Translations under genes and position numbers: made by a program
Assembly: GCA_043771685.1 (NCBI GenBank)
Contig: JAYVGX010000032.1
Coordinates: 1-49,565 of the forward strand
Direction: 5' to 3'
Source: Minisyncoccota bacterium
GTDB lineage: Bacteria; Patescibacteriota; Minisyncoccia; Phycocordibacterales; UBA9973
Length of the DNA stretch: 49,565 nt
Shown: in pieces, positions 2,502 to 49,173 of the stretch
Numbering within the stretch: position 1 is the first letter of the stretch
Layout of the letters: each line of letters opens with the position of its first letter
The notes under the pieces: generated by a model
Database searches by the model: none
Told to the model about the DNA's origin: nothing
Seen by the model: the letters and a program-made list of their open reading frames with translations, nothing else

Positions 2502-3566
2502 ATGAACGATTACACAGACAAATTCAACAAGCGAATTAGCACACCAGAGCCACATATTGTGGCTATTTTGGCTGAAATAGACGGTATAAGAGGTGAATTT
2601 AAATCTGGACTACGCATGACTCCACAGGCCATAACGAGCCTTAAAAAGTCAGTCCTGATAACATCTGCCGGAGCTTCAACTCGTATCGAGGGTTCAAAAC
2701 TTTCTGATGAAGAGGTCAAGAAAATCCTCAGCAATTTGTCTATCTCAAAATTCTCAGATCGAGATTCTCAAGAAGTGCAGGGTTACCTTGAGACATTACA
2801 AAATGTGTTTGATAGTTATCAAACACTACCACTTCGTGAAGGTGTAATCACATCACTCCACAACGAACTAATGAAGTATTCAGATAAAGACAAACTACAC
2901 AAAGGAAGTTACAAAAAACAAGAAAATCTCGTCGGTGTTGCCAATGAAAAAGGTGAAGTCACACAGGTAATATTTGAGACTACTCTTTCATGGCAGACAC
3001 CAAAAGAAATGACAGAAATTGTCGAGTATTCATTTGATGAACTTGAAAAGAATCATTTTCATCCATTACTTGTGATTGCAAATTTTCTCGTAGAATTTCT
3101 GAAAATCCATCCATTTCAAGACGGTAATGGCCGTATGTCACGAGTACTTACCAACATGCTTTTACTTCGATCTGGGTATCAGTTTGTAGAATATGTATCA
3201 CATGAGCAAATCATCGAACAACGAAAAGATGAATACTATTACGCACTTCGCAAATCTCAAGAATCATTCAAAACAGAAAATGACACCATTTCACCTTGGC
3301 TCAACTATTTTCTATCAGTAGTTAGAGAACAGGCAACCAAAGCGCTTGTGTATTTGCAGGAAGAAAAGTTCGAGGATACATTATCACCAAAGCAACTAGA
3401 AGTATGGAAGTACCTCGTTATTAATAATGAAGCAAGTCCCACACAGATATCAAAAGATACTGGCATTATTATTGCAACAGTGCGACAAGCATTACTTCGA
3501 CTAATGGAACTCGAAAAGATCAAGCGAGTCGGTCGTGGTCCGCAGACTAGATATGTTAAAATTTAA
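2502..3566 (+). CDS. fic: Fic family protein (AMPylase/NMP-transferase type) with N-terminal inhibitory motif and C-terminal winged-helix-like tail
   Basis: HPFQDGNGRMSR matches HxFx(D/E)GNGRxxR. STRIEG near the N-terminus matches the (S/T)xxxE(G/N) auto-inhibition motif. C-terminal ...ISKDTGIIIATVRQALLRLMELEKIKRVGRG resembles wHTH. Confidence 0.9.
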   Translation: MNDYTDKFNKRISTPEPHIVAILAEIDGIRGEFKSGLRMTPQAITSLKKSVLITSAGASTRIEGSKLSDEEVKKILSNLSISKFSDRDSQEVQGYLETLQNVFDSYQTLPLREGVITSLHNELMKYSDKDKLHKGSYKKQENLVGVANEKGEVTQVIFETTLSWQTPKEMTEIVEYSFDELEKNHFHPLLVIANFLVEFLKIHPFQDGNGRMSRVLTNMLLLRSGYQFVEYVSHEQIIEQRKDEYYYALRKSQESFKTENDTISPWLNYFLSVVREQATKALVYLQEEKFEDTLSPKQLEVWKYLVINNEASPTQISKDTGIIIATVRQALLRLMELEKIKRVGRGPQTRYVKI

Positions 3567-9460: not shown

Positions 9461-11824
9461 ATGAAATTTGAACAACCTCCCAAAATTGAAACGGAAAGAC
9501 AAGAGCCTTCTGTTGAACAGGTCTCTTTTTCTGATCAAGAAAATAATATTAGTGAAGTGTTCAAACTTTGTCCAGAATTGGAAAGCATCGCTCTTGAAGG
9601 CGTTGGCATTGATGAATCTCTTGCAAATAAAATAGTCCGTTTATACAGAATCGAAAACAGAAACAAGAAAGTAGAGAAAAGCAAAGAAGGTGGAAATAAT
9701 GATAAATACATTGGCCAATGGTTTACTACCGATTTATCCTATGCGATTGATTACATTGAGAATACCTACAACAAAAATGAGTCAGGGATAAATTATGATG
9801 ACACTGTATTGCACTATACAGAGCTACCCGTAAAAGAAGCCTCTAAGTATCTAGTCTCAAAAGAAACAATCACAAGTGAAAAACTTGAAGCAGAGCCAGA
9901 TAATTTTCATATAGAGGATCGTTCAAATCTACAAACACTAGAGCTTGCGGATTTATTACATACTTTTAAGAAAGGTGGTATTATCCGAACAAAATTTGGT
10001 TTTGATAAAAAACATATTGAGCCACTTATTCTCGATCAAATCTCTGAGTTAGTACCAGCCGATGGAACATTTGATGATGTTGTAGCTTTTGACGAAAAAA
10101 GAAAAGAAGCTATTGAAGAATATGGAAAATATCTGGAAACTATATTTCCAGAAAGCAAGCTCAAAGAAATTGTATACCACGGTACGAATAGAAAATTTGA
10201 TAAATTTGAAAGACGTCACGGTTTAGATGACCTATCAGGTATCGAAGGTGTTGATGATTACTATTTCACAGACAGTAAAGAGCTTGCTCGATCCTTCGCA
10301 GAGAAATACAAAAAAGTATTGTATGCTATTTTCAAAAGCCACGAAAGTGGTAACGTTGACTGGTATTTTAAAAGGCAAGATACTGCGGGTGATTTTTCTG
10401 AATTTCAAGATTCAACAAAAGAGCTCTGGGAAGATATTCACAAGGAATGGAACTATATAGTTACCGAATCACATAAAAGTAGAGCGCTAGATGACATATT
10501 GCAAGATACTAACATTCAGTATTTTAGCAACAAGGAAGGATTCGGATTTAAGTTTGGAAAGATGCTGATGCCATATTATTTGATGAATGATTATGACTCA
10601 TACAAAGAGTATCCCAATGGAACAGTAATACCTGTCATATTGGATTTAAAAAAACCATACATCAAAGAAGGCGATAGAAATTCTATGGATGGTATCTTGT
10701 CTGAAGCAGGTTATAGGCACAAAAAAGAAGACAGTGAGATTGATGGCGGAATACAGCAAGATTCCAGTGAGAAAAACATTGTGGTTTTTAATCCAGAACA
10801 AATTCACGTTCTTGGTTCAGAATTTGATGTTGAAAAATTCAAAGAATTTGTTAGTAAAAATGAGTCCAAAAAAGACAGACAAAGTATTGAGGGGTTCTTG
10901 AAAGAAAACGGTATTGAAAAAGTTCCTCACATTAAAACCAATTTCTTCTTTAATCAACACGCAACTGCCGAAGACGGTCAAATGGTTGCGGATAGGTTGA
11001 AAGACAAAGATATATTTATTCAAGAAAATGCAGGCTGGGATGATGAGAGACTTTTGACTTGGCAAAAAGTAACGAGTGGTGAGTTTACCGCCGATCAAGC
11101 TATTGAACACGAAAAAGCACGTGGTAAAGCATTCTTTTGGACTGAGTACTACAAATCTATTTTTGAAAATATACACGGAACAAATAAAGAGGTGTTGCTC
11201 GTTGATATAAAAGATGATAGTGAATTATACAAAGAAATTTATGACCTGATGAAAACTGATGGCGTGTACTGGAATATACTCGATAGATCAAAAACCTACG
11301 ATGAAGTCATAGAACATATAGGCGATGCTTCACAATTAGAGTCACTTAGCCAAGAGGAACGAGAAAATGAGATATTGAAAAATACGAAACAGAATTTGCT
11401 TGAACTTCTCAAAAATAAACCTGAATTGCAAGACAAAGAAGAGTTGAATGTATTGTTCTCAATGGGATCATTCCATACACGGCTCTATCACGAGATGAAA
11501 AAAGATGGGAACGATGTTACTCGTGAGCATCAATCTATGCCCTATACGTTTTCGCCCCGAATGGAAGTAGAACGATTAGTGCATTTCAAAGGTAGAGAAG
11601 TGGCGGAATCATCTATGCCAAAAGTCCTTTTGTATTTACTACTTGGTAAAACTGGCGTTTTTCGACTCGACCAAATGAAGCACGAACAACAACATATTGT
11701 TATGAAGAAATTTAATACAGATGCTCAAATCAGAGAATTGTACGAAAGATACCAAAAATCTGAATCTGATGAGCAGTTTAGAAAAAAAATAAATGGCTGG
11801 ATAGCTGAACAGTACAGGAAGTAA
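9461..11824 (+). CDS. Large (787 aa) hypothetical protein with two tandem ART-like modules and an uncharacterised C-terminal half
   Basis: Module 1 is LYRIENRN...GQWFTTDLSYAIDY. Module 2 is VYHGTNRKFDKFE...DYYFTDSKELARSFAE...NIVVFNPEQIHVLG. The H/R...[FY]FT[TD]...A..[FY]A...E-like pattern recalls ADP-ribosyltransferase-fold modules of phage/conjugative polyvalent proteins. Confidence 0.55.
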   Translation: MKFEQPPKIETERQEPSVEQVSFSDQENNISEVFKLCPELESIALEGVGIDESLANKIVRLYRIENRNKKVEKSKEGGNNDKYIGQWFTTDLSYAIDYIENTYNKNESGINYDDTVLHYTELPVKEASKYLVSKETITSEKLEAEPDNFHIEDRSNLQTLELADLLHTFKKGGIIRTKFGFDKKHIEPLILDQISELVPADGTFDDVVAFDEKRKEAIEEYGKYLETIFPESKLKEIVYHGTNRKFDKFERRHGLDDLSGIEGVDDYYFTDSKELARSFAEKYKKVLYAIFKSHESGNVDWYFKRQDTAGDFSEFQDSTKELWEDIHKEWNYIVTESHKSRALDDILQDTNIQYFSNKEGFGFKFGKMLMPYYLMNDYDSYKEYPNGTVIPVILDLKKPYIKEGDRNSMDGILSEAGYRHKKEDSEIDGGIQQDSSEKNIVVFNPEQIHVLGSEFDVEKFKEFVSKNESKKDRQSIEGFLKENGIEKVPHIKTNFFFNQHATAEDGQMVADRLKDKDIFIQENAGWDDERLLTWQKVTSGEFTADQAIEHEKARGKAFFWTEYYKSIFENIHGTNKEVLLVDIKDDSELYKEIYDLMKTDGVYWNILDRSKTYDEVIEHIGDASQLESLSQEERENEILKNTKQNLLELLKNKPELQDKEELNVLFSMGSFHTRLYHEMKKDGNDVTREHQSMPYTFSPRMEVERLVHFKGREVAESSMPKVLLYLLLGKTGVFRLDQMKHEQQHIVMKKFNTDAQIRELYERYQKSESDEQFRKKINGWIAEQYRK

Positions 11825-11825
11825 G

Positions 11826-12107
11826 CTACTTCATACCACTCATACCCTTGAACGATTCGATCTCCATACAAATCTGCGTATGGAGATCTTTTGTTATTTC
11901 CTCATTTTTGAATTCAACTCGATTCTTCCAATTATCGACAGCAAGAAATAATCGCCAATGCGATCCTCGGAAATCATAGAGAGCGATCAGCGTGAACGAT
12001 CCGTCTAGCTTTTCGTGATACCACAAAGTGGTCTTGTCACCATCCCAAACATGCGCGTTTTTGCGCAGCATTTCAAATGGATCAAACTGATAATCATTTT
12101 CAATCAT
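11826..12107 (-). CDS. Small hypothetical protein (93 aa), convergent with the 787-aa gene
   Basis: ATG-initiated ORF. Its stop codon lies 1 nt from the stop of 9461..11824, and no hairpin separates them. Confidence 0.45.
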   Translation of the reverse strand: MIENDYQFDPFEMLRKNAHVWDGDKTTLWYHEKLDGSFTLIALYDFRGSHWRLFLAVDNWKNRVEFKNEEITKDLHTQICMEIESFKGMSGMK

Positions 12108-12205
12108 AGGTGTGTATGTTTTAGCATACTTTTTGAAATTGTCGTAATAATTGGGGTAGGGGATAGTGTGGGAGTTTGTCCCCTTTTATGCTTATAAATA
12201 TAGAC

Positions 12206-12234
12206 TTGCATTATTTATAATGTGGGAGTATAAT
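12206..12234 (+). promoter_or_regulatory. Sigma70-like promoter upstream of the integrase (TTGCAT-17-TATAAT)
   Basis: TTGCAT at 12206-12211, 17-nt spacer, TATAAT at 12229-12234. The spacer contains one TGTGGGAGT copy. Confidence 0.45.
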
Positions 12235-12460
12235 CTAAAAACCTGATGAATCTCTTAACAGTGCCATGGCAGGGGACTCAGGAACAGGTAAAATATTATT
12301 AGAAATAAGCCTCTGTCCCTTGTCAGGGATAGCCCACAGCAGGCATTTGATTCATATCAAAGCCTTCTTTCGTTCCGATAGTGTGGGAGTTTACGATGTT
12401 GTTCTCGGAAAACATTTCAAGAACCCCTCAAACAGGCTTTTAATCATCAATAACAAATTT

Positions 12461-13393
12461 ATGCTACTTAGAGAAGCAATCGAAAAATACTTGCTATGGA
12501 AAGGTGCCGAGACTAGAACAGCAGCAAAAGTCTACCGACCATTTCTAGAGCATTTCTATGATTACGTAGGTAACAAAGATACTCTGCAAATAACCCTTGA
12601 AGAGATATCGGCATTCCGAGCATCGTTGAAGTTAAAATACAACGATGGCAACATAGCCAACCATAACAACGTAATCAAAAACTTTTACAAATGGCTGGAA
12701 GCAAACCGTATCACAACAGTGCATCCATTCTTGATCCGTAACCCAAGGTTCCAGCCACCAGAGCGCCCAGTAGCAACGCCTGAAGAAGTAGAGAAAATGT
12801 GTGCAACCCTTAACCCGAATTCCTACGGAGATTTGATGCGACTCGTCGCGATCAAGTTGATGTGGGAGTCAATGATCCGTGTTAGTGAGCTTATAGAGCT
12901 AAATATTGATGCAATTGATCCGCAAAAGAATTTTGTGGAAATAGTAGGGAAGAAGAATTATAAAAAAAGATGGATCATGTGGTCGCCTGATACCCATCAA
13001 CTCCTACTCACATACATTGCCAAAAGAAAAATGTTAGCTCCTCATGAAGCCTTGTTCGCGCATGAGAGCGCCGGGGTCACTCAGCGAATGGCAACTAGAA
13101 GTATTGAACGGTGGATGAAGGTTGCGCGAGAAAAAGCAAAACTCACCCAAGATATTTCTTGCCACGCGTTGCGACATGGCGGTGCTCATGAACTGGTCAA
13201 GAAAGGTGCGAGTCTTAAATTCCTCGGGCTTATACTCGGTCACTCGGATTCAAATCCACGAGCGGGGATGCAATATCTACGATTCAGCAAAGAAGAATCA
13301 CTCGATGTCGTAGAGAAATTTGTGGGACTAAGATTCGACAGATTAGCACCAGAGCCTTTTGTTAGAACATATAATAACTACAGCATTGCATAG
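12461..13393 (+). CDS. int: Tyrosine recombinase/integrase (XerC/D-like size)
   Basis: N-terminal SAM-like core-binding domain (LREAIEKYLLWKG...). Catalytic elements are MIRVSEL (Arg), CHALRHGGAH (HxxR), GHSD and MQYLR (Tyr). The 12266 start would add a non-protein-like 65-aa extension. Confidence 0.85.
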   Translation: MLLREAIEKYLLWKGAETRTAAKVYRPFLEHFYDYVGNKDTLQITLEEISAFRASLKLKYNDGNIANHNNVIKNFYKWLEANRITTVHPFLIRNPRFQPPERPVATPEEVEKMCATLNPNSYGDLMRLVAIKLMWESMIRVSELIELNIDAIDPQKNFVEIVGKKNYKKRWIMWSPDTHQLLLTYIAKRKMLAPHEALFAHESAGVTQRMATRSIERWMKVAREKAKLTQDISCHALRHGGAHELVKKGASLKFLGLILGHSDSNPRAGMQYLRFSKEESLDVVEKFVGLRFDRLAPEPFVRTYNNYSIA

Positions 13394-13954: not shown

Positions 13955-14212
13955 TTAAAAAGAAACCATTTCTTCCTTCCTTCCTTTTTTTCGTTCTCTT
14001 ATTTCTTTTCTTTTTTCTTCTTCAGTTCTAGAAACTACATTTTTTCCATTTATAATTTCTTGTTTAATAGATTTGGGTTTAGAAATTATTTTAACTTCTG
14101 ATTTACTAGCATCAACAACTTGCTTCACTGTCATTTTTGATGATTCAGTTGGTAAATGCCTTCTGCTATTTTTACCTTTTTTTGAATTTCCAGGGTTTTT
14201 TGATCTACACAT
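13955..14212 (-). CDS. Lys/Arg/Ser-rich small hypothetical protein
   Basis: ATG start and a downstream terminator. Composition is low-complexity and basic; the overlapping + strand ORF (13886..14101) is the less plausible of the two. Confidence 0.35.
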   Translation of the reverse strand: MCRSKNPGNSKKGKNSRRHLPTESSKMTVKQVVDASKSEVKIISKPKSIKQEIINGKNVVSRTEEEKRKEIRERKKGRKEEMVSF

Positions 14213-14410
14213 GTTTTTTATTTTTTAAAGGATTAAAATACACATATTTACTTAATGTAAACATGTAAATAAATTATTTATTTACTTAAAAATAACAATT
14301 TTTTAGATAAAAGTCAATGAAATTTATAAACACCTCTGTTCCCTATTATTATTGACTATTTTATAAAAAAATGTTTAAATTATTAAAAATTATTTTACAC
14401 CTAAATAAAC

Positions 14411-14803
14411 ATGGACATGCAAGAAATAGTAACCCGAGTAGCTTTTTGTAAGAAATGTTTTAAGAATGGTTCTCCAAAAAAAGGACAAAAAATAATGGTC
14501 CATGGATCTTCATCAAATTTATTTAAAATGATAGAAGCTTCAGATTACGGATATCCTGGTTTTACTCCCCATACTTTTGAAATTGTGAAATATTTAAGGG
14601 ACGAAAAACTCCTAGTTTCAAGTATTTGTGGAATTGAGGGGTGCGGTTCCTATTTTGTTTATGAGGTTATTAATCATAGACAACGTCATAGTTTTTTAAA
14701 ATTTATTGAAGAAAATTTAGAATTTGAAACTTTTACTTCAGAAAGGTGGAGTGCATTAATGTATTTATCTGAACATGACTTTGCGGAAATTTATAAAGTT
14801 TAA
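14411..14803 (+). CDS. Hypothetical protein with CxxC...CxxxxC cysteines
   Basis: CKKC at about aa 13-16 and CGIEGC at about aa 73-78. A strong terminator follows. Confidence 0.5.
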   Translation: MDMQEIVTRVAFCKKCFKNGSPKKGQKIMVHGSSSNLFKMIEASDYGYPGFTPHTFEIVKYLRDEKLLVSSICGIEGCGSYFVYEVINHRQRHSFLKFIEENLEFETFTSERWSALMYLSEHDFAEIYKV

Positions 14804-14810
14804 AAAACAA

Positions 14811-14843
14811 ATAGCCTATTACTTTTATAAGTAATAGGCTATT
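14811..14843. terminator. Bidirectional terminator hairpin
   Basis: ATAGCCTATTACTT-ttat-AAGTAATAGGCTAT, lying between convergent genes. Confidence 0.65.
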
Positions 14844-14856
14844 TATATTTTAGAAT

Positions 14857-16188
14857 TTAGCCTTGAACAAAAGTTAAAGCGATACCTTTTTTACTTGCAC
14901 GACCAGTACGGCCGATGCGGTGTACATAAGTATCGTATGTTTGAGGAATCTCGTAGTTTATAACATGTGTTACATCAGGTATGTCGAGTCCACGCGCTGC
15001 TACATCGGTTGCTACCAGGACGTTTAGTGTATCGTCTTTGAAGCTCGACAAAGTACGTTGACGGTCATTGTGTCGTTTATCACCATGGATAGAACCAGCA
15101 CGGAAACCACGTCTCTTTAATTCAACTGACAGTTTCTCGACTAGATGTTTTGTTTCAGCAAAAATAAGAACTTTTTTGAAATCAAGCTTTTTAGATAAAA
15201 GCTCTTCTAAGACATCCATCTTATCCACACCACGTTCTATGCGAACTATATCTTGTTCAACATTTTTTGATGTGTCTTGAGTTTTTACCATAATACGAAC
15301 TGGATCTTGGGAGAATCTTTCAATTAATTTCTCAATCGGTTTAGGAAGTGTCGCAGAGAAAAATAATCCTTGTCTGTCTTTAGCTGTTTTTTCAAGTAAA
15401 TATGTTATATCATCGATAAAACCCATGTCCAACATTCTGTCAGCTTCATCTAGTACAACAGATCGTGTATCAGATAAATCAATCTCGCCTTTTTTAACTA
15501 AATCCAAAAGTCTACCTGGAGTACCTATAACAAAGTTACATCCTTGGCGGAGTCTCTTTATTTGAGGAAAAATAGGTGCACCTCCGACACAAACTACAGC
15601 ATACATTTTCAATAAACGAGCAAAGTCGTTGAATTCTTTTTCAATTTGAATCGCTAGTTCACGTGTCGGAGCTATAATGATAACAGTTTCGTTTCTATCA
15701 TTTATAACTTTATTTATAAGAGGGATAAGAAATGCAGCTGTTTTACCAGTACCTGTATTGGCTATACCAAGTATGTCGCGACCTTCTAATGCACGTGGGA
15801 TGGCCTTGTCTTGAATCGGACTTGGGTAAATGTATTGTTTATTTGCAATAGCTTGTTTGAGCTTTTCGTCGATTTTAAAATCAGCAAAAGTATGAGTTGG
15901 TAAGTAGATCTCTTCTTTTTCTATAACAGTTGCGCGACTAATAAAACGTGATACATCTATGCGTTCAAATGAACCACCACGGCGATTACCACCTGAACGA
16001 TTACGATTGTTACCACCACTAAAACGTGCTGGTCCACGACTTCCTTGTCCAAAACTAGGACGAGAAGAACGTGAGCCTCCAGAAGAAGGTCTCGCTGAAG
16101 TAGAACTACGACGTGGTCCTGATTGTGTGGAAGATGCTCCACGTGAATAATTAGCTCCAGAGGAGCTTTTTGGTTTGTTGTTATACAT
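14857..16188 (-). CDS. DEAD-box ATP-dependent RNA helicase with an N-terminal Arg/Gly/Ser-rich extension
   Basis: Q-motif PSPIQ, AxTGTGKT, PTRELA, DEAD, SAT, ARGLDI and HRIGRTGRA. The first roughly 75 aa are RGG/RS low complexity. Confidence 0.93.
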   Translation of the reverse strand: MYNNKPKSSSGANYSRGASSTQSGPRRSSTSARPSSGGSRSSRPSFGQGSRGPARFSGGNNRNRSGGNRRGGSFERIDVSRFISRATVIEKEEIYLPTHTFADFKIDEKLKQAIANKQYIYPSPIQDKAIPRALEGRDILGIANTGTGKTAAFLIPLINKVINDRNETVIIIAPTRELAIQIEKEFNDFARLLKMYAVVCVGGAPIFPQIKRLRQGCNFVIGTPGRLLDLVKKGEIDLSDTRSVVLDEADRMLDMGFIDDITYLLEKTAKDRQGLFFSATLPKPIEKLIERFSQDPVRIMVKTQDTSKNVEQDIVRIERGVDKMDVLEELLSKKLDFKKVLIFAETKHLVEKLSVELKRRGFRAGSIHGDKRHNDRQRTLSSFKDDTLNVLVATDVAARGLDIPDVTHVINYEIPQTYDTYVHRIGRTGRASKKGIALTFVQG

Positions 16189-16290
16189 AATTTAATTTTC
16201 TTGCGTGTTTCAAAAATAAAATTGAAACGCTCATACACACAAAGAGTTTTTCAATATTTGTATATTAGCATTAGTAAAATAAAATGTCAA

Positions 16291-16333
16291 GTATACATAA
16301 AAAACGTACATGATGTACGTTTTTTATGTATAC
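16291..16333. terminator. Perfect 20-bp-arm palindrome (terminator-like)
   Basis: GTATACATAAAAAACGTACA-tga-TGTACGTTTTTTATGTATAC. Confidence 0.6.
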
Positions 16334-16336
16334 TTT

Positions 16337-16483
16337 TTATTTAGCTTTAACAGCTTGTTTTCTGAAATTCTTCTTTGCTTTCTTTGCGTCTAGCATTACT
16401 TGTTTTACAGCCAATCTCTTCTTTGTTTTCTTAGAGTGAATTGATTTCGGTTTTGGACTCAGTGTGGTACTTCTTTTTGCCAT
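16337..16483 (-). CDS. Unannotated 48-aa highly basic protein (ribosomal-protein-like composition)
   Basis: Manual translation gives MAKRSTTLSPKPKSIHSKKTKKRLAVKQVMLDAKKAKKNFRKQAVKAK. It is below the ORF-track length cut-off, and the palindromic hairpin follows it. Confidence 0.35.
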   Translation of the reverse strand: MAKRSTTLSPKPKSIHSKKTKKRLAVKQVMLDAKKAKKNFRKQAVKAK

Positions 16484-16551
16484 ATATTTTGTATATTTTT
16501 ATTGATATAACCTATTATAGCCTATTTTAATATTTATGTTAATATAAATAT

Positions 16552-17916
16552 ATGTCAAAGATAATAGTTAACAAAATAGGCGGTGGGATACTGGTGGACA
16601 AATACATACCACTAATCCCCCTTCGTATTCAAGCACAAATTAAAAACGGCTACACTCCGATACTGGTAGTTTCTGCATTTCCTGGTATTACTGATGATAT
16701 TCTTTTTTTTGCGAAACAAATTAAAGAAAATCAAAAAATAAATGAATCAATTTATATAAAAAGTATTTTGTCTAAACATACAAAGATTATAGATAGTTTC
16801 ATTATCGATACAAAAATAAAGAATCAAACTTTAAATCAATTAGATGAGTTGTTTTTAAAATTTGAAAAGGATATAAAGCTTTTTATTGATAATAAAAAAA
16901 ACACAGACAAGTCCCCTATTTACGAAGATGCATTGGTGGCTTATGGAGAGAGATTCGCTGCAACTATAATTGCAAAATTTCTAGAGAATAAAGATATGGT
17001 AACCAAAAGAGTTCTGGCTGAAGACATACCAATAATAACTGATGATAACTTTAAAGATGCAAATATCATAAAAGATATTTCTACAAAAAACCTCAATTCG
17101 TATTTTATAAAAAAAATAAAAAATAATTCCAACAGTGTATTAATCATTCCAGGTTTTACTGGTAAAACCAAAGCAGGAGCAACAACAACGCTAGGACGTG
17201 GTGGTACAGATACAGCCGCTTGTTTTATAGGTAGTGCATTAAAAGTAAAGAAAATAATTTTATGGAAAAACGTAGGTGGTGTGATGTCTTGTGATCCACG
17301 TTTAGTTACTAATGTTAAGAAGATAAGTACGATTAGCTACGATCAAGCCATAGAAGCAGGAAAAATAATCCACGAAAAAGCCATAGATTATGTAAAGAAT
17401 AGTAAAACTCCGATAGAAATCACATCTATCGAGAATCCGAAGCACAGTACGACAATCAAAGATATCCGTACAAAAGAAAGTGGTGCTAAAATAATAAGTC
17501 TAAAGAGAAATGCCCAGTTATTTCTAATAAATGATGAAACATTAGGAATATCCGAACTAATTTCTTTTACTGGAAATGTTTTCTCAAAATATAAAACTGA
17601 AATAGTATTAATAAGTAACACTCGTTATGGTCTACAAGTTGTTGCTTATGATGAAAATGATTCTATGGAAAGTATAAAAAGAGAGATATCAAATAAAGTT
17701 CAAAAAGTAGAAAAGACAGTTTGTGATATGATATTCATGGTTGGACAATTTAATCCAAATGATGTTAGTGATTTCAACAATTTACTCATAAAACAAGGTG
17801 TCGATTTAAATATAAGTGCTTTTTATTATCAGAATTGTACACGAATAGAGGCTGTAATCAAAACCAAAAATATTGAAAAAGTCGTAAATGCTGTGCATGG
17901 TAAGTTTATAAAATAA
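16552..17916 (+). CDS. lysC: Aspartate kinase
   Basis: Amino-acid kinase fold (KIGGGIL, VVSAFPGITD, GRGGTDTAA) plus a C-terminal ACT-like region. Confidence 0.85.
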   Translation: MSKIIVNKIGGGILVDKYIPLIPLRIQAQIKNGYTPILVVSAFPGITDDILFFAKQIKENQKINESIYIKSILSKHTKIIDSFIIDTKIKNQTLNQLDELFLKFEKDIKLFIDNKKNTDKSPIYEDALVAYGERFAATIIAKFLENKDMVTKRVLAEDIPIITDDNFKDANIIKDISTKNLNSYFIKKIKNNSNSVLIIPGFTGKTKAGATTTLGRGGTDTAACFIGSALKVKKIILWKNVGGVMSCDPRLVTNVKKISTISYDQAIEAGKIIHEKAIDYVKNSKTPIEITSIENPKHSTTIKDIRTKESGAKIISLKRNAQLFLINDETLGISELISFTGNVFSKYKTEIVLISNTRYGLQVVAYDENDSMESIKREISNKVQKVEKTVCDMIFMVGQFNPNDVSDFNNLLIKQGVDLNISAFYYQNCTRIEAVIKTKNIEKVVNAVHGKFIK

Positions 17917-17935
17917 TTAATAATTTTCGAATATT

Positions 17936-19024
17936 ATGAAAAAATTTAAAGTTGGAATACTGGGCGCAACTGGTATGGTTGGCCAAAAATACATTAGTTT
18001 ACTAGAAAACCACCCGTATTTTAGTGTTGTTTATGTGGCTGCTTCTGAAAAATCAGCAGGCAAGACTTATAACGAAGCTGTAAAAGGCCGTTGGCATATG
18101 GAAAATGATATTCCTAAAAATGTAGCGAAATTAAATGTTTATGATGTCGAAGATGTAGCTACAGCTATCAAACAATGCGACTTTGTCTTTTCTGCTTTCG
18201 AGATCTCTGATAAAAAAGAAGTTATACGCATAGAGGAAGCTTATGCAAAAGCCGGACTCCCTGTTATATCAAATTCATCGGCGAACCGATGGACCAGTGA
18301 CGTACCGATGATTATCCCTGAGATCAATAGTGATCATTCAAAAATCATTCCAACTCAGCAAAAGAATCATGGTTTTAAAAAAGGTTTTATCGCTTGCAAG
18401 CCTAACTGTAGTATACAAAGTTATCTCACTGCAATTTATGCTTTAGAGAAAGCAGGATTCCCTGTTTCAAAAATTATGGTTACTACTATGCAAGCAGTAA
18501 GTGGCGCTGGTTATCCAGGTGTACCGAGTCTCGACATGATAGATAACATTGTTCCCTATATCGGAGGTGAAGAAGAAAAAACAGAAAATGAACCGAAGAA
18601 GATTTTAGGTGAAATAAAAAATGGTGTCTTTAAGAAAAATAAAGATATTTCTATCTCTGCAACTTGCACACGTGTGCCTGTAACTGACGGCCATACAGCT
18701 GTGGTTCATATTAAATTCAAGAATAAAAAGCCAAGCATGGAAGAAATTGTAAAGATTTGGGATAAATTTTCTGGAGAGCCACAAAAACTCAAACTACCTT
18801 CTGCGCCAGTTCAACCTCTAATTTACAAAACAGAGGAAAACAGACCACAACCTAAAAAAGATCGTGATACAGAGAATGGTATGGTTTTATCGTTGGGAAG
18901 ATTAGAAGAGTGTGAAGTTCTCGACTATAAATTCGTTGGCCTCTCTCACAATACTGTTCGTGGAGCATCCGGCGGTGCAATACTAATGGCTGAGTTATTA
19001 GTTGCACAGAAATATATTAAATAA
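17936..19024 (+). CDS. asd: Aspartate-semialdehyde dehydrogenase
   Basis: KVGILGATGMVGQ Rossmann motif, active-site CKPNCS, and the GHT region. Confidence 0.9.
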   Translation: MKKFKVGILGATGMVGQKYISLLENHPYFSVVYVAASEKSAGKTYNEAVKGRWHMENDIPKNVAKLNVYDVEDVATAIKQCDFVFSAFEISDKKEVIRIEEAYAKAGLPVISNSSANRWTSDVPMIIPEINSDHSKIIPTQQKNHGFKKGFIACKPNCSIQSYLTAIYALEKAGFPVSKIMVTTMQAVSGAGYPGVPSLDMIDNIVPYIGGEEEKTENEPKKILGEIKNGVFKKNKDISISATCTRVPVTDGHTAVVHIKFKNKKPSMEEIVKIWDKFSGEPQKLKLPSAPVQPLIYKTEENRPQPKKDRDTENGMVLSLGRLEECEVLDYKFVGLSHNTVRGASGGAILMAELLVAQKYIK

Positions 19025-21745: not shown

Positions 21746-22159
21746 CTACTTAAACAATTGCATAAACTTCTCTTTAATCTCCTTAAAAACATTGTCGTTT
21801 ATATGGGCTACACGACGAATCATTCTTTTTGAGCTCATTAATCTTAATTGAGAAAGTATAACATAAGAAATTTTTTCCTCATAAACACCATTTTCATTTA
21901 AGATATTTAGAACTAATTTAAAATGAAATTTATTGTCTTTTTCTTTTGATGTCAAAGGAAAACCAAAGAACATGCCTTTATGAAATTTCCTAAAAACTAA
22001 AACTGGTCTTTCATATTTATCATTTTTACCATCTTCTTCAAAACCAACATTCTCTCCCAATGAACACCACCAAATCTCTTGATCACGAAACAAAACTTCT
22101 TTTTTAGAATTTTCAATACTAGTTTTTATTTTATGCCAGTTTTGATAATCTTTTACCAT
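21746..22159 (-). CDS. PemK/MazF-like (SH3-barrel toxin fold) protein
   Basis: W.KIK......(F)RDQEIWWCSLGENVGFEEDGKNDKYERPVLVF...GFPLTSK...ILSQLRLMSSKRM matches my memory of the roughly 140-aa PemK/MazF family. Confidence 0.55.
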   Translation of the reverse strand: MVKDYQNWHKIKTSIENSKKEVLFRDQEIWWCSLGENVGFEEDGKNDKYERPVLVFRKFHKGMFFGFPLTSKEKDNKFHFKLVLNILNENGVYEEKISYVILSQLRLMSSKRMIRRVAHINDNVFKEIKEKFMQLFK

Positions 22160-48236: not shown

Positions 48237-48491
48237 TTATTTAATTTCTTTTTTGTCTATTTCTTCGTTTTTTAATTTATCTAAATATTCTTTTATACAT
48301 TTCCATATACTCATGATTGATACTCCAAAAGCAACTAAAATAAGTCCTAAGAATATCCAAGGTGTTGTCTGATATCTATTGTCTAGATATTTTCCAATAG
48401 GAAGCGCAACTATTATAGGGACAGCTATCGCTGTCGATACTTTTGCAAAAACTATTATACCTGGTTTCCACCAATCATTTTTATTATCCAT
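48237..48491 (-). CDS. AtpZ/AtpI-like small membrane protein
   Basis: Two TM helices, and it is the first gene of the atp operon. Confidence 0.6.
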   Translation of the reverse strand: MDNKNDWWKPGIIVFAKVSTAIAVPIIVALPIGKYLDNRYQTTPWIFLGLILVAFGVSIMSIWKCIKEYLDKLKNEEIDKKEIK

Positions 48492-48510
48492 TTTATTTAT
48501 TTTAGAACCA

Positions 48511-48548
48511 GTGCGTGTGGAAAGAATCGAACTTTCGGCCTCTGTCTT
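48511..48548 (-). repeat. Perfect 38-nt duplicate of the 3' part of tRNA-Ile (anticodon-stem 3' strand through discriminator +1)
   Basis: It is identical to 48593-48630. Confidence 0.85.
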
Positions 48549-48549
48549 T

Positions 48550-48580
48550 CAAATGGCAACGAATCGTAAAATGAAATAAA
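48550..48580. repeat. Left arm of the inverted repeat flanking tRNA-Ile
   Basis: CAAATGG (48550-48556) and AAAATGAAATAAA (48568-48580) are complementary to 48706-48712 and 48682-48694. Confidence 0.8.
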
Positions 48581-48593
48581 CTACCGCCCTGCG

Positions 48594-48665
48594 TGCGTGT
48601 GGAAAGAATCGAACTTTCGGCCTCTGTCTTATCAGGACAGCGTTCTACCACTGAACTACACACGC
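48594..48665 (-). tRNA. tRNA-Ile (anticodon GAU), 72 nt, no encoded CCA
   Basis: The manual fold is GCGUGUG-UA-GUUC-AGUGGUA-GAAC-G-CUGUC-CUGAUAA-GACAG-AGGCC-GAAAG-UUCGAUU-CUUUC-CACACGC-A. All stems are Watson-Crick. Confidence 0.88.
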
Positions 48666-48681
48666 ACGCAAAGAATTAGTT

Positions 48682-48712
48682 TTTATTTCATTTTCGATGA
48701 GCGCACCATTTG
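48682..48712. repeat. Right arm of the inverted repeat flanking tRNA-Ile
   Basis: TTTATTTCATTTT (48682-48694) and CCATTTG (48706-48712). Confidence 0.8.
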
Positions 48713-48756
48713 TATTTAATCAGAGGACAGAGTTCTACCACACAACTACACAAAGC
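48713..48756 (-). pseudogene. Degenerate copy of the 5' half of tRNA-Ile
   Basis: The minus strand reads GCUUUGUGUAGUUGUGUGGUAGAACUCUGUCCUCUGAUUAAAUA, against GCGUGUGUAGUUCAGUGGUAGAACGCUGUCCUGAUAA in the intact gene. Acceptor and D-stem pairing are damaged. Confidence 0.5.
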
Positions 48757-48804
48757 GTGGGATTTCTCCGTACAGACATTGATTCAAATTTAAAGAACAA
48801 GGAT

Positions 48805-48833
48805 ATTGTAACAGAAAAAACTCAAATTTGCAA
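48805..48833 (-). promoter_or_regulatory. Strong sigma70-like promoter (TTGCAA-17-TACAAT) upstream of the tRNA-Ile/atp region
   Basis: Minus-strand -35 lies over 48828-48833 and -10 over 48805-48810. It sits directly after the RRM-gene terminator. Confidence 0.5.
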
Positions 48834-48835
48834 AC

Positions 48836-48865
48836 AAAAATCCCCTACTTTCGTAAGGGGTTTTT
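48836..48865 (-). terminator. Terminator of the RRM protein gene
   Basis: AAAAA-CCCCTAC-tttc-GTAAGGGG-TTTTT. Confidence 0.55.
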
Positions 48866-48882
48866 GAGCATAACAATATATG

Positions 48883-49173
48883 TTATCTGTTTCCGCGGAA
48901 TCCTCCTCCACCTTGTGGACGTTCTTCCATAGGGCGAGCTTCGTTTACAGTAAGATTGCGACCATCGAAATCTTTACCATCGAACATACTAACTGCATTT
49001 GTTGCATCAGCATCGTTTTCGAATTCAACGAAACCAAAACCTTTTGAACGACCAGTCATTTTATCCATGATGATAGTTGCTGAAGAAACAGCACCTGCAC
49101 CACTAAAATGAGCTTTTAGTTCATCGTTAGTTGTTTTATAAGGAAGACCACCAACGTATAACTTTTTTGCCAT
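48883..49173 (-). CDS. RRM-type RNA-binding protein with a C-terminal Gly/Arg tail
   Basis: RNP-2 is KLYVGGL and RNP-1 is KGFGFVEF, with a C-terminal GGGGFRGNR. The likely start is ATG 49173 (MAKKLYV). Confidence 0.88.
   Translation of the reverse strand: MAKKLYVGGLPYKTTNDELKAHFSGAGAVSSATIIMDKMTGRSKGFGFVEFENDADATNAVSMFDGKDFDGRNLTVNEARPMEERPQGGGGFRGNR

Follow-up and report, generated by a model that had tools for sequence, protein, structure and literature searches.

Introduction

The only disrupted tRNA genes known from bacteria are those that carry group I introns, which sit in the anticodon loop, as in cyanobacterial tRNA-Leu and tRNA-fMet and in the tRNA-Ile of Azoarcus (PMC4033280). Here we describe a composite tRNA-Ile locus in front of the atp operon of a Minisyncoccota bacterium, on contig JAYVGX010000032.1 of assembly GCA_043771685.1 (positions 1-49,565; this whole analysed stretch is called the window, and the locus is read on its minus strand). 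The locus is a tRNA gene within a tRNA gene: an older tRNA-Ile(GAU) gene is interrupted in its anticodon loop, at the bond A35|U36, by a 173-nt block. We call this block and its counterparts in other genomes cassettes, and the split outer gene the shell. The location of the insert is the same as that of the bacterial group I introns; unlike them, the non-tRNA part of the insert measures just 101 nt, gives no match to Intron_gpI, and leaves a junction that is not restorable.

Several other described systems resemble the locus in part. Islands and prophages targeted to tRNA genes (tyrosine-integrase type, Islander; PMC4383910) likewise disrupt a tRNA gene, supply a working tRNA and leave displaced fragments behind. 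In contrast to them, the cassettes are free of an integrase, their inserts have about 100-180 nt and not kilobases, they carry the whole tRNA where islands carry just its 3' part, and both halves of the target are displaced. Additionally, the cassette junctions have no common identity block, whereas the cassette ends are complementary throughout and covary. Homing group I introns and inteins, as well as twintrons, share with the cassettes an identical insertion site, presence/absence polymorphism between close strains, co-conversion of the flanks and nesting. However, the cassettes have neither a ribozyme core nor a homing endonuclease gene, and the host gene is rescued by a carried replacement copy that recreates the target, not by splicing.

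The intervening sequences (IVS) of 23S rRNA and other RNase III stems (PMC4990558; PMC6582327) are stem-loops in a loop of a structural-RNA gene, sporadic and selfish-looking, and the cassette arms likewise form an extended conserved stem-loop inserted in such a loop. By analogy, the long double-stranded stem of the cassette is a likely substrate for a double-strand-specific RNase. The difference is that a fragmented rRNA still works, whereas a tRNA cut in the anticodon loop cannot, and the function of the cassette lies in the cargo tRNA at the tip of the stem. In Archaea, bulge-helix-bulge (BHB) introns, split and tri-split tRNAs and intron transposition (PMC4033280) also produce separated halves that complementary arms could rejoin, and both the archaeal disrupted tRNAs and the cassettes have extra inserts at non-canonical positions (D region, T loop). 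The cassettes differ in the bacterial host, in the missing BHB geometry, in the decaying shell, in exons that in the family of the window are not restorable, and in an insert that carries a full tRNA of the same identity. Full-text searches directed at nested or disrupted tRNA genes of bacteria, with incomplete journal coverage, gave no description of a tRNA nested in tRNA halves in bacteria. A complete tRNA gene lodged in its predecessor's anticodon loop would be a new architecture of tRNA genes and probably a new small mobile element.

Anatomy of the composite locus

ARAGORN and Rfam alike find a single tRNA in the 49.5-kb window, a tRNA-Ile(GAU) on the minus strand (ARAGORN call tRNA-Ile(GAT), 48593-48665; Rfam tRNA model, 48594-48665, 76 bits, E = 8e-17). 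This inner gene has 72 nt to the discriminator (48594-48665) and no encoded CCA, and on these calls it is the functional gene and the sole intact tRNA of the locus; the outer halves were called by neither ARAGORN nor Rfam. The gene lies between a 56-nt leader arm (48666-48721, delimited by sequence, repeat finder and folds) and a 45-nt trailer arm (48549-48593), and the resulting 173-nt block is flanked by the halves of the older gene. The outer 5' half (48722-48755, 34 nt, tRNA-Ile positions 1-35; repeat finder and alignment) is decayed, with the acceptor strand CTTTGTG; it has 7 mismatches to the inner copy across its first 33 nt (48755-48723) and was detected as a 29-nt direct repeat of 90% identity (48724-48752 versus 48634-48662). 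The outer 3' half (48511-48548, positions 37-73 (+1)) is identical to the inner copy at 38 of 38 nt, being a perfect direct repeat of 48593-48630.

The arms contain a perfect 13-nt inverted repeat around the tRNA (48568-48580 and 48682-48694; repeat finder), and the pairing, as read from the letters, continues as CAAATGG (48712-48706) with CCATTTG (48556-48550) and as AUCG with CGAU. The 38-nt perfect repeat together with more than 24 bp of arm pairing lies far above chance. In order, the 5' arm consists of the CAAATGG helix, the loop segment TGCGCTC (a conserved TTCGCTC in most relatives), the AUCG helix, the AAAATGAAATAAA helix and the leader UUCUUUGCGU, which lengthens the inner acceptor stem. 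The 3' arm is complementary to it and ends with CCATTTG and an A that replaces U36. The junctions thus read CCTCT|GA... on the 5' side and ...TTTGA|AAGACAG on the 3' side. A preceding sequence-only reading of this DNA had proposed six minus-strand elements with two arms, X (within the leader arm) and X' (within the trailer arm), pairing over 13 + 4 + 7 bp; all six elements were recovered with small coordinate adjustments, and so were the three helices.

The 391-nt spacer that holds the locus is identical in four other assemblies. Four short contigs contain part of it, agree with it in the overlap, and start or stop within or next to the duplicated tRNA segments. Such breaks are expected for a real repeat, and the locus is therefore not an assembly artefact.

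Empty and filled sites in close relatives

The relatives linked to atpB (20 loci from species-representative genomes, designated here, like all other fetched loci, by L numbers) place the window in Paceibacteria (Patescibacteria, Candidate Phyla Radiation (CPR)) by their AtpB. A tRNA-Ile(GAU) is called upstream of the atp operon in 16 of the 20, in either orientation relative to atp, and L018 has one as well, with a mismatched acceptor stem, that ARAGORN did not call. The tRNA-Ile of the closest relative, L001 (AtpB 95% identical), is plain. Its leader ACGGAGAAATCCCCAC and its trailer TGGTTCT... match the flanks of the outer halves in the window, where the outer 5' half is preceded by the leader ACGGAGAAATCCCACG (48756-48776, assigned by alignment with relatives, after a short remnant TCTGTAC of an older 5' fragment) and the outer 3' half is followed by the same TGGTTCT.... 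Therefore, L001 looks like an empty site, and the uninterrupted outer tRNA that the sequence-only reading had thought worth seeking does occur in a relative. This empty site and the A35|U36 position bear out the idea of a tRNA interrupted in its anticodon loop by an insert that itself carries a tRNA.

The same composite is present in L002 (AtpB 92%), where the outer 5' half is nearly intact (1 mismatch), as well as in L003 and L004 (AtpB 72-74%), and partial nested forms occur in L006, L007, L010, L014 and L018; these loci make up the nested or partly nested ones among the 20 relatives. The protein with an RNA recognition motif (RRM) encoded next to the locus is 100% identical across a plain allele (L065), L002-type alleles (L067-69) and window-type alleles (among L062-66). 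Thus, the presence or absence of the cassette differs between very close strains. A plain tRNA-Ile in relatives or arms without covariation had been named as what would speak against the composite reading: L001 is indeed plain, but many relatives carry the repeats and their arms covary.

Some smaller features of these alleles can be recorded here. Over about 250 nt of cassette and 3' half, the window has the same sequence as L002, and the two show about 7 differences in 40 nt of the outer 5' half and junction (window 48716-48755, L002:996-1035), a local burst in a dead half. Tandem units of the leader GGAGAAATCCCAYGC and a degenerate tRNA 5' fragment ending in the D arm are found at window 48756-48776, L002:935-990 and L001:1590-1709; on reading the sequences, the window keeps a single remnant, L002 possesses an extra unit and L001 has still more. 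Perhaps they derive from an older shell whose junction lay in the D loop, as it does in L043. In L005, L006, L007, L010, L012 and L032, the complete tRNA-Ile locus, be it nested or plain, has the opposite orientation to the atp operon, and a palindromic duplicate of the promoter region (TATAGCAAAAA...TTTTTGCTATA) stands between the tRNA locus and atpZ in the inverted loci, with a promoter-like copy facing atp. Inverted T-arm relics are found downstream of several plain loci (L005, L008, L015, L016).

Recurrence of the nested plan in Patescibacteria

A metagenome scan was done with the pattern of a tRNA 5' half that is not followed by U36; since the pattern demands an orphan 5' half, the result speaks for breadth and not for frequency. 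It yielded 36 loci, which, when read in register, share one plan of outer 5' half, arm, intact tRNA-Ile, complementary arm and outer 3' half. The lineages in which the nested plan recurs have acceptor stems that differ greatly. The arms fall into at least three families. Family A, that of the window, is characterised by an AAAYGG/CCRTTT helix, by the internal loop GGTTCGCTCG / CTCRCTGCC, which is conserved, and by a AAAATGAAA/TTTCATTTT helix. The junctions of family B read CCTGA|CCYGCCCGCC...GGCRGGCGGG|TAAGACAG, and in family C, 5' halves follow one another in tandem, joined by a 17-nt linker. In every exactly readable case of all families, the insertion point is the bond A35|U36.

Two or three layers of nesting are present in L021, L041, L043 and L056. 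In every nested locus whose innermost copy lies in the fetched contig, that copy is the sole intact tRNA-Ile. The shell of L034 still has a family-A leader. Cassettes are also found near tRNA-Val and dprA and downstream of 16S rRNA (L044); in the latter, the nested tRNA-Ile (L044:2020-2247) lies about 1.2 kb past the 3' end of the 16S rRNA gene, in a ribosomal RNA operon setting. L037 and L044 contain a family-A hairpin without a tRNA.

Neither the window nor the fetched loci, a small sample selected for tRNA-Ile, contained arm motifs away from tRNA-Ile. Orphan halves of other tRNA species gave no real case among 22 in a small and biased sample, with one tRNA-Val cross-matching the Ile 5' half. 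Distant outer 3' halves, which would be a sign of long cassettes bearing open reading frames (ORFs), were absent within the fetched loci. A viral origin was considered and rejected, as IMG/VR contigs contain neither the pattern of an orphan 5' half nor the tRNA core. A derivation of the arm loops from D-arm or T-arm relics was rejected as well, since the similarities extend over only 5-7 nt and are too weak.

Origin of the inner gene

The acceptor strands of the shells indicate where the inner gene came from. In L021/52, L031/40, L033, L034, L037/44, L047 and L048, the outer 5' and 3' strands pair with each other at 7 of 7 positions. The inner acceptor is a different one, and pairing of the outer strands with the inner tRNA is poor. 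Therefore, the inner gene arrived with the insert, and the two outer halves were one former gene. Moreover, this former gene was still selected for pairing when the lineages diverged, so that each shell was invaded after the divergence. L049 and L050 go further: their inner gene belongs to another type of tRNA-Ile, which has a long D loop.

Similar cassettes sit in different shells, which speaks for horizontal spread. The family-B arms and the inner-tRNA marker GAAGTC are nearly identical in L021 and L029, whereas the shells of these two loci differ (GGGCACA versus GGGCGGC). L028 has the same shell and arm as L029, and the DprA-like neighbours of L021 and L028 are only 52% identical. The A2-type loci have at least 7 different shells, and A35 is never present in them (C in 10, T in 1). 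As independent clean insertions would keep A35, its absence in all A2-type loci argues for co-conversion. The sequence-only reading had offered a remnant of a tRNA-targeted insertion or duplication as one explanation; the empty site, the common insertion point and the foreign acceptor stems uphold the insertion, and a plain local duplication is not supported.

Decay of the outer shell

When the halves in the window are joined, the anticodon becomes CUA (CTA) and the acceptor stem pairs at 5 of 7 positions, counting G.U; the outer shell of the window is therefore dead, as the sequence-only reading had already thought probable. All joined family-A shells have non-Ile anticodons (CTA in the window; GAA, TAA, GCT and GCC in others). 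Only six joined shells regain GAT, and all of them belong to family B; once the insert is taken out, CTGATAA is back exactly, and the joined product is recognised by ARAGORN as Ile (L021, L029, L031, L040, L047, L052). The shells are truncated in L007, L022, L023 and L039, and those of L006, L007, L010, L032, L043, L049 and L051 are interrupted again by additional hairpins, which lie either in the T loop or past the D arm. There are also half-deleted forms that keep either the 5' half, an arm and the tRNA, or the tRNA, an arm and the 3' half. These forms and the mismatched chimeras L018 and L035 look as would be expected from exchange between direct repeats. With the anticodon, the weak acceptor stem and the decaying shells of relatives taken together, a role of the outer halves as a tRNA is not supported.

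The additional hairpins are cargo-less. They lie at G53|T54 in the T loop of dead outer 3' halves and belong to three unrelated sequence types (L006:1658-1790, L010:2370-2470, L032:7283-7390; also L043, L051 and L049), and in L007 a hairpin follows the D arm of the outer 5' half.

The arms as a paired stem

The nested fold of 48505-48765 (minus strand) has an energy of -91.4 kcal/mol (z = -5.7), which none of 200 shuffles equalled, and the cassette alone reaches -66.6 kcal/mol (z = -7.6). For the cassette, the sense strand folds better than the antisense strand by 7.6 kcal/mol. Covariation of the arms was analysed on ten A1-type sequences, for which the RNAalifold consensus is a rod running from the outer helix to the inner acceptor stem. 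In the 34 arm pairs, 94.9% of the cells are paired compared with 86.2% in shuffles, and none of 500 shuffles matched the observed value. Compensatory change on both sides was found in 13 pairs, against 0-3 pairs when the partners were slid by 1-3 columns. Three conserved U.G columns are present in the arms, and a manual count of the pair tables gave about 28 G.U cells versus 4 A.C cells. Family B forms the same rod, with compensatory pairs of its own.

The 13 compensatory pairs and the conserved G.U wobbles point to a leader/trailer stem that is kept at the RNA level on the tRNA-sense strand. The data thus favour the view that the arms are a selected RNA stem in the tRNA-sense transcript, where they would lengthen the inner acceptor stem. 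A processing stem that releases tRNA-Ile, one of the options in the sequence-only reading, is consistent with this covariation, and the compensatory changes and the stable fold for which that reading had suggested looking are both there. Besides tRNA, no Rfam family matched the composite (48300-49000, E <= 10) or 10 nested loci (E <= 0.05).

The atp context

The upstream ORF, assigned to RRM_1, ends at 48883 and is followed by a hairpin resembling an intrinsic terminator (48842-48859, minus strand; 7-bp stem, 4 GC pairs, T tail), which marks the upstream limit of the tRNA/atp transcription unit. Next comes a sigma-70-like promoter, TTGCAA-17-TACAAT with an extended TG (48805-48833, minus strand), recognised by consensus match only; according to the alignment, this promoter-like site is kept in L001, L002 and L062-L071. 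The first atp gene (48237-48491, minus strand, ATG at 48491) encodes 84 aa with an ATPase_gene1 domain match (AtpZ/I-like). Its start codon lies 19 nt past the outer 3' half, and atpB, E, F, H, A, G, D and C follow. The scan found no terminator-like site between the tRNA and the atp genes. Co-transcription of the tRNA locus with the atp operon is plausible because the promoter lies upstream, no terminator intervenes and the gap to atp is just 19 nt.

Discussion

We consider it likely that the locus was made by a horizontally spreading tRNA-Ile cassette, which replaces the gene that it disrupts, spreads by gene conversion, carries its own processing stem and here has become part of the atp leader. 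A hairpin block with a complete tRNA-Ile would enter the anticodon loop of a resident tRNA-Ile gene at A35|U36, and the cassette would survive because the replacement for the disrupted gene comes with it. Its spread would probably proceed by homology-dependent, homing-like gene conversion, for which the invariant tRNA core would serve as homology arms, and shell nucleotides near the junction would be co-converted during the transfer. In the transcript, the arms would form a processing stem, probably cut by RNase III or another double-strand-specific activity, followed by RNase P and RNase Z; such processing would release the inner tRNA and prevent its mispairing with the duplicated halves. As the same promoter would drive atp, the trailer arm and the outer 3' half would become, or be trimmed from, the atp 5' leader.

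Several points weigh against this explanation. An insertion enzyme was not found in or beside the cassettes. In the A1 subfamily, the inner and outer acceptor strands are the same (GCGTGTG), and the foreign origin of the inner gene in the window is argued by homology with the other families. Between the outer 3' half and the inner copy there is full identity, also where lineage-specific changes have occurred (L038); we infer gene conversion from this identity, and selection on that copy is the alternative. The homology arms are short for RecA-type exchange, with about 26-33 nt on the 5' side and down to about 13 invariant nt on the 3' side. The difference between L001 and the window may reflect a gain or a precise loss of the cassette. 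Finally, that tRNA and atp are co-transcribed, the stem is processed and the outer halves are inactive has been deduced from sequence.

A bolder form of the cassette explanation, which we offer only tentatively and hold to be less than probable, is that the cassettes are a new class of protein-less, self-propagating "homing tRNA" elements, which invade, kill and replace the resident tRNA-Ile and are re-invaded across Patescibacteria. As the cassette recreates its own target, it would be invaded in turn, which would result in Russian-doll tRNA genes. Such elements might be driven by a nuclease that acts in trans and cleaves the tRNA-Ile gene, or by selection for new acceptor-stem alleles; attack by tRNA-Ile-specific tRNases might be one source of such a selective pressure. 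No site-specific endonuclease is encoded in or beside the cassettes, so that an enzyme of this kind would possibly act in trans, and no recurrent recombinase stands next to the loci. An apparent family of adjoining proteins at 9 loci was rejected, as it is an antisense translation of the tRNA itself.

Cassettes of this kind would be a natural record of how minimal-genome organisms replace an essential tRNA horizontally. They explain the orphan tRNA-Ile halves seen by tRNA finders and the breaks of short-read assemblies at these places. With nesting, inversion and tandem arrays, they also mark a hot spot of recombination next to core operons and offer a system for studying how a structural-RNA gene is invaded with no loss of function.

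Alternative explanations

One would argue that the locus arose by purely local rearrangement, with slippage or unequal exchange copying part of the resident tRNA-Ile in place and the arms being what remained of the spacer. In its favour, the window, L002, L004 and L038 have one acceptor stem in common inside and outside, the 3' copy is perfect, and unequal exchange has evidently been at work in the tandem 5'-half arrays (L035, L042, L046) and in the leader and 5'-fragment units of L001 and L002. However, a tandem duplication gives head-to-tail copies, and not a whole gene inside halves that are split at one bond with no overlap. The complementary, covarying arms that are conserved across genera would stay unexplained, and in other loci the inner acceptor stem, even the tRNA type in L049 and L050, differs from a shell that is consistent in itself. 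Thus we regard local rearrangement as unlikely.

A scar of integration is in our estimate similarly unlikely. According to it, one or two islands or prophages entered tRNA-Ile, regenerated the gene and were later deleted down to short spacers. Transfer RNA genes, including the anticodon-loop sublocation, are classic integration sites at which an island restores the gene and leaves a displaced fragment (PMC4383910), a large serine recombinase abuts the 3' end of tRNA-Ile in L027, L042 and L046, and the window encodes a tyrosine recombinase (12266-13393). Yet one displaced fragment and a shared junction core would be expected, whereas here both halves are displaced, 56 and 45 nt from the intact gene, and the partition at A35|U36 has no duplicated core (in family B, no duplicated nucleotides at all). 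In none of the A or B loci do the halves enclose an ORF, and two independently deleted islands would not leave spacers that pair fully and covary. The integrase of the window lies 36 kb off with no tRNA-Ile fragments near it, and the serine recombinase is restricted to one organism.

On inspection of the junctions, a serine- or tyrosine-recombinase logic with a shared dinucleotide or core was rejected because it does not fit them. A transposon of the miniature inverted-repeat (MITE) or insertion-sequence (IS) type with target duplication was rejected too: the arms are inverted repeats, but no target nucleotides are duplicated in any family.

The arms might also join the outer halves so that the insert is excised as from an intron-containing or split tRNA, the halves are ligated, and each transcript gives two tRNA-Ile. 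The arms do stack on the outer anticodon stem as one rod, and the six family-B shells with a restored CTGATAA, which ARAGORN calls tRNA-Ile when joined, are what such excision would need; excision of exact-junction family B at the RNA level might occur. Nevertheless, the junctions of the window and of all family-A loci cannot yield GAU, the outer acceptor stem of the window is degraded, and many shells are truncated or further interrupted. The Rfam searches, over the same ranges and thresholds as above, gave no group I core, and the non-tRNA insert has 101 nt. On inspection, the cut sites face each other at the base of a helix beside a 3x2 or 4x3 internal loop, with no staggered bulges, whereas BHB cut sites are offset by 4 bp. 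We know of no bacterial enzyme for such splicing, and no match to the EndA splicing endonuclease or to an RNA ligase was found among 50 ORFs scanned in the window. Two tRNAs from one transcript are therefore quite improbable.

A tRNA-like leader that regulates atp by charging sensing, read-through or mRNA stability, which the sequence-only reading had also entertained, is very improbable and found no support: although the composite separates the only promoter-like site from the first atp gene and no terminator intervenes, relatives have a plain (L001), nested or inverted divergent tRNA (L005, L006, L007, L010, L012, L032) in front of this operon, cassettes are also found in unrelated contexts (tRNA-Val, dprA, 16S rRNA in L044), and Rfam gave no match to a T-box or another cis-regulatory family.

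Other features of the relatives and of the window

The serine-recombinase segment occupies L042:2901-4785; it is also present in L046 and L027 and not in L035, and its orientation is inverted between L042 and L046. In the element of L042 and L046, a long ORF runs antisense through the tRNA array. In L035, the far side of the tRNA is 100% identical, the element is absent and the 3' acceptor strand is mismatched to the 5' half.

In the window itself, the region 9461-13393 encodes a 787-aa ART-PolyVal protein and then the tyrosine recombinase (Phage_integrase), and has a GC content of 0.40 compared with about 0.33. This region may be a separate integrated element and has no link to the tRNA-Ile locus. 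An ORF for a MazF/PemK-type toxin (21746-22159, minus strand) stands between dnaJ and dnaK, with a 131-aa ORF directly upstream of it, and a Fic-domain protein is encoded at 2502-3566 (plus strand). Within about 14000-19000, the cumulative GC skew peaks near 16-18 kb and the main coding strand turns from plus to minus, which could mark a replication origin or terminus.

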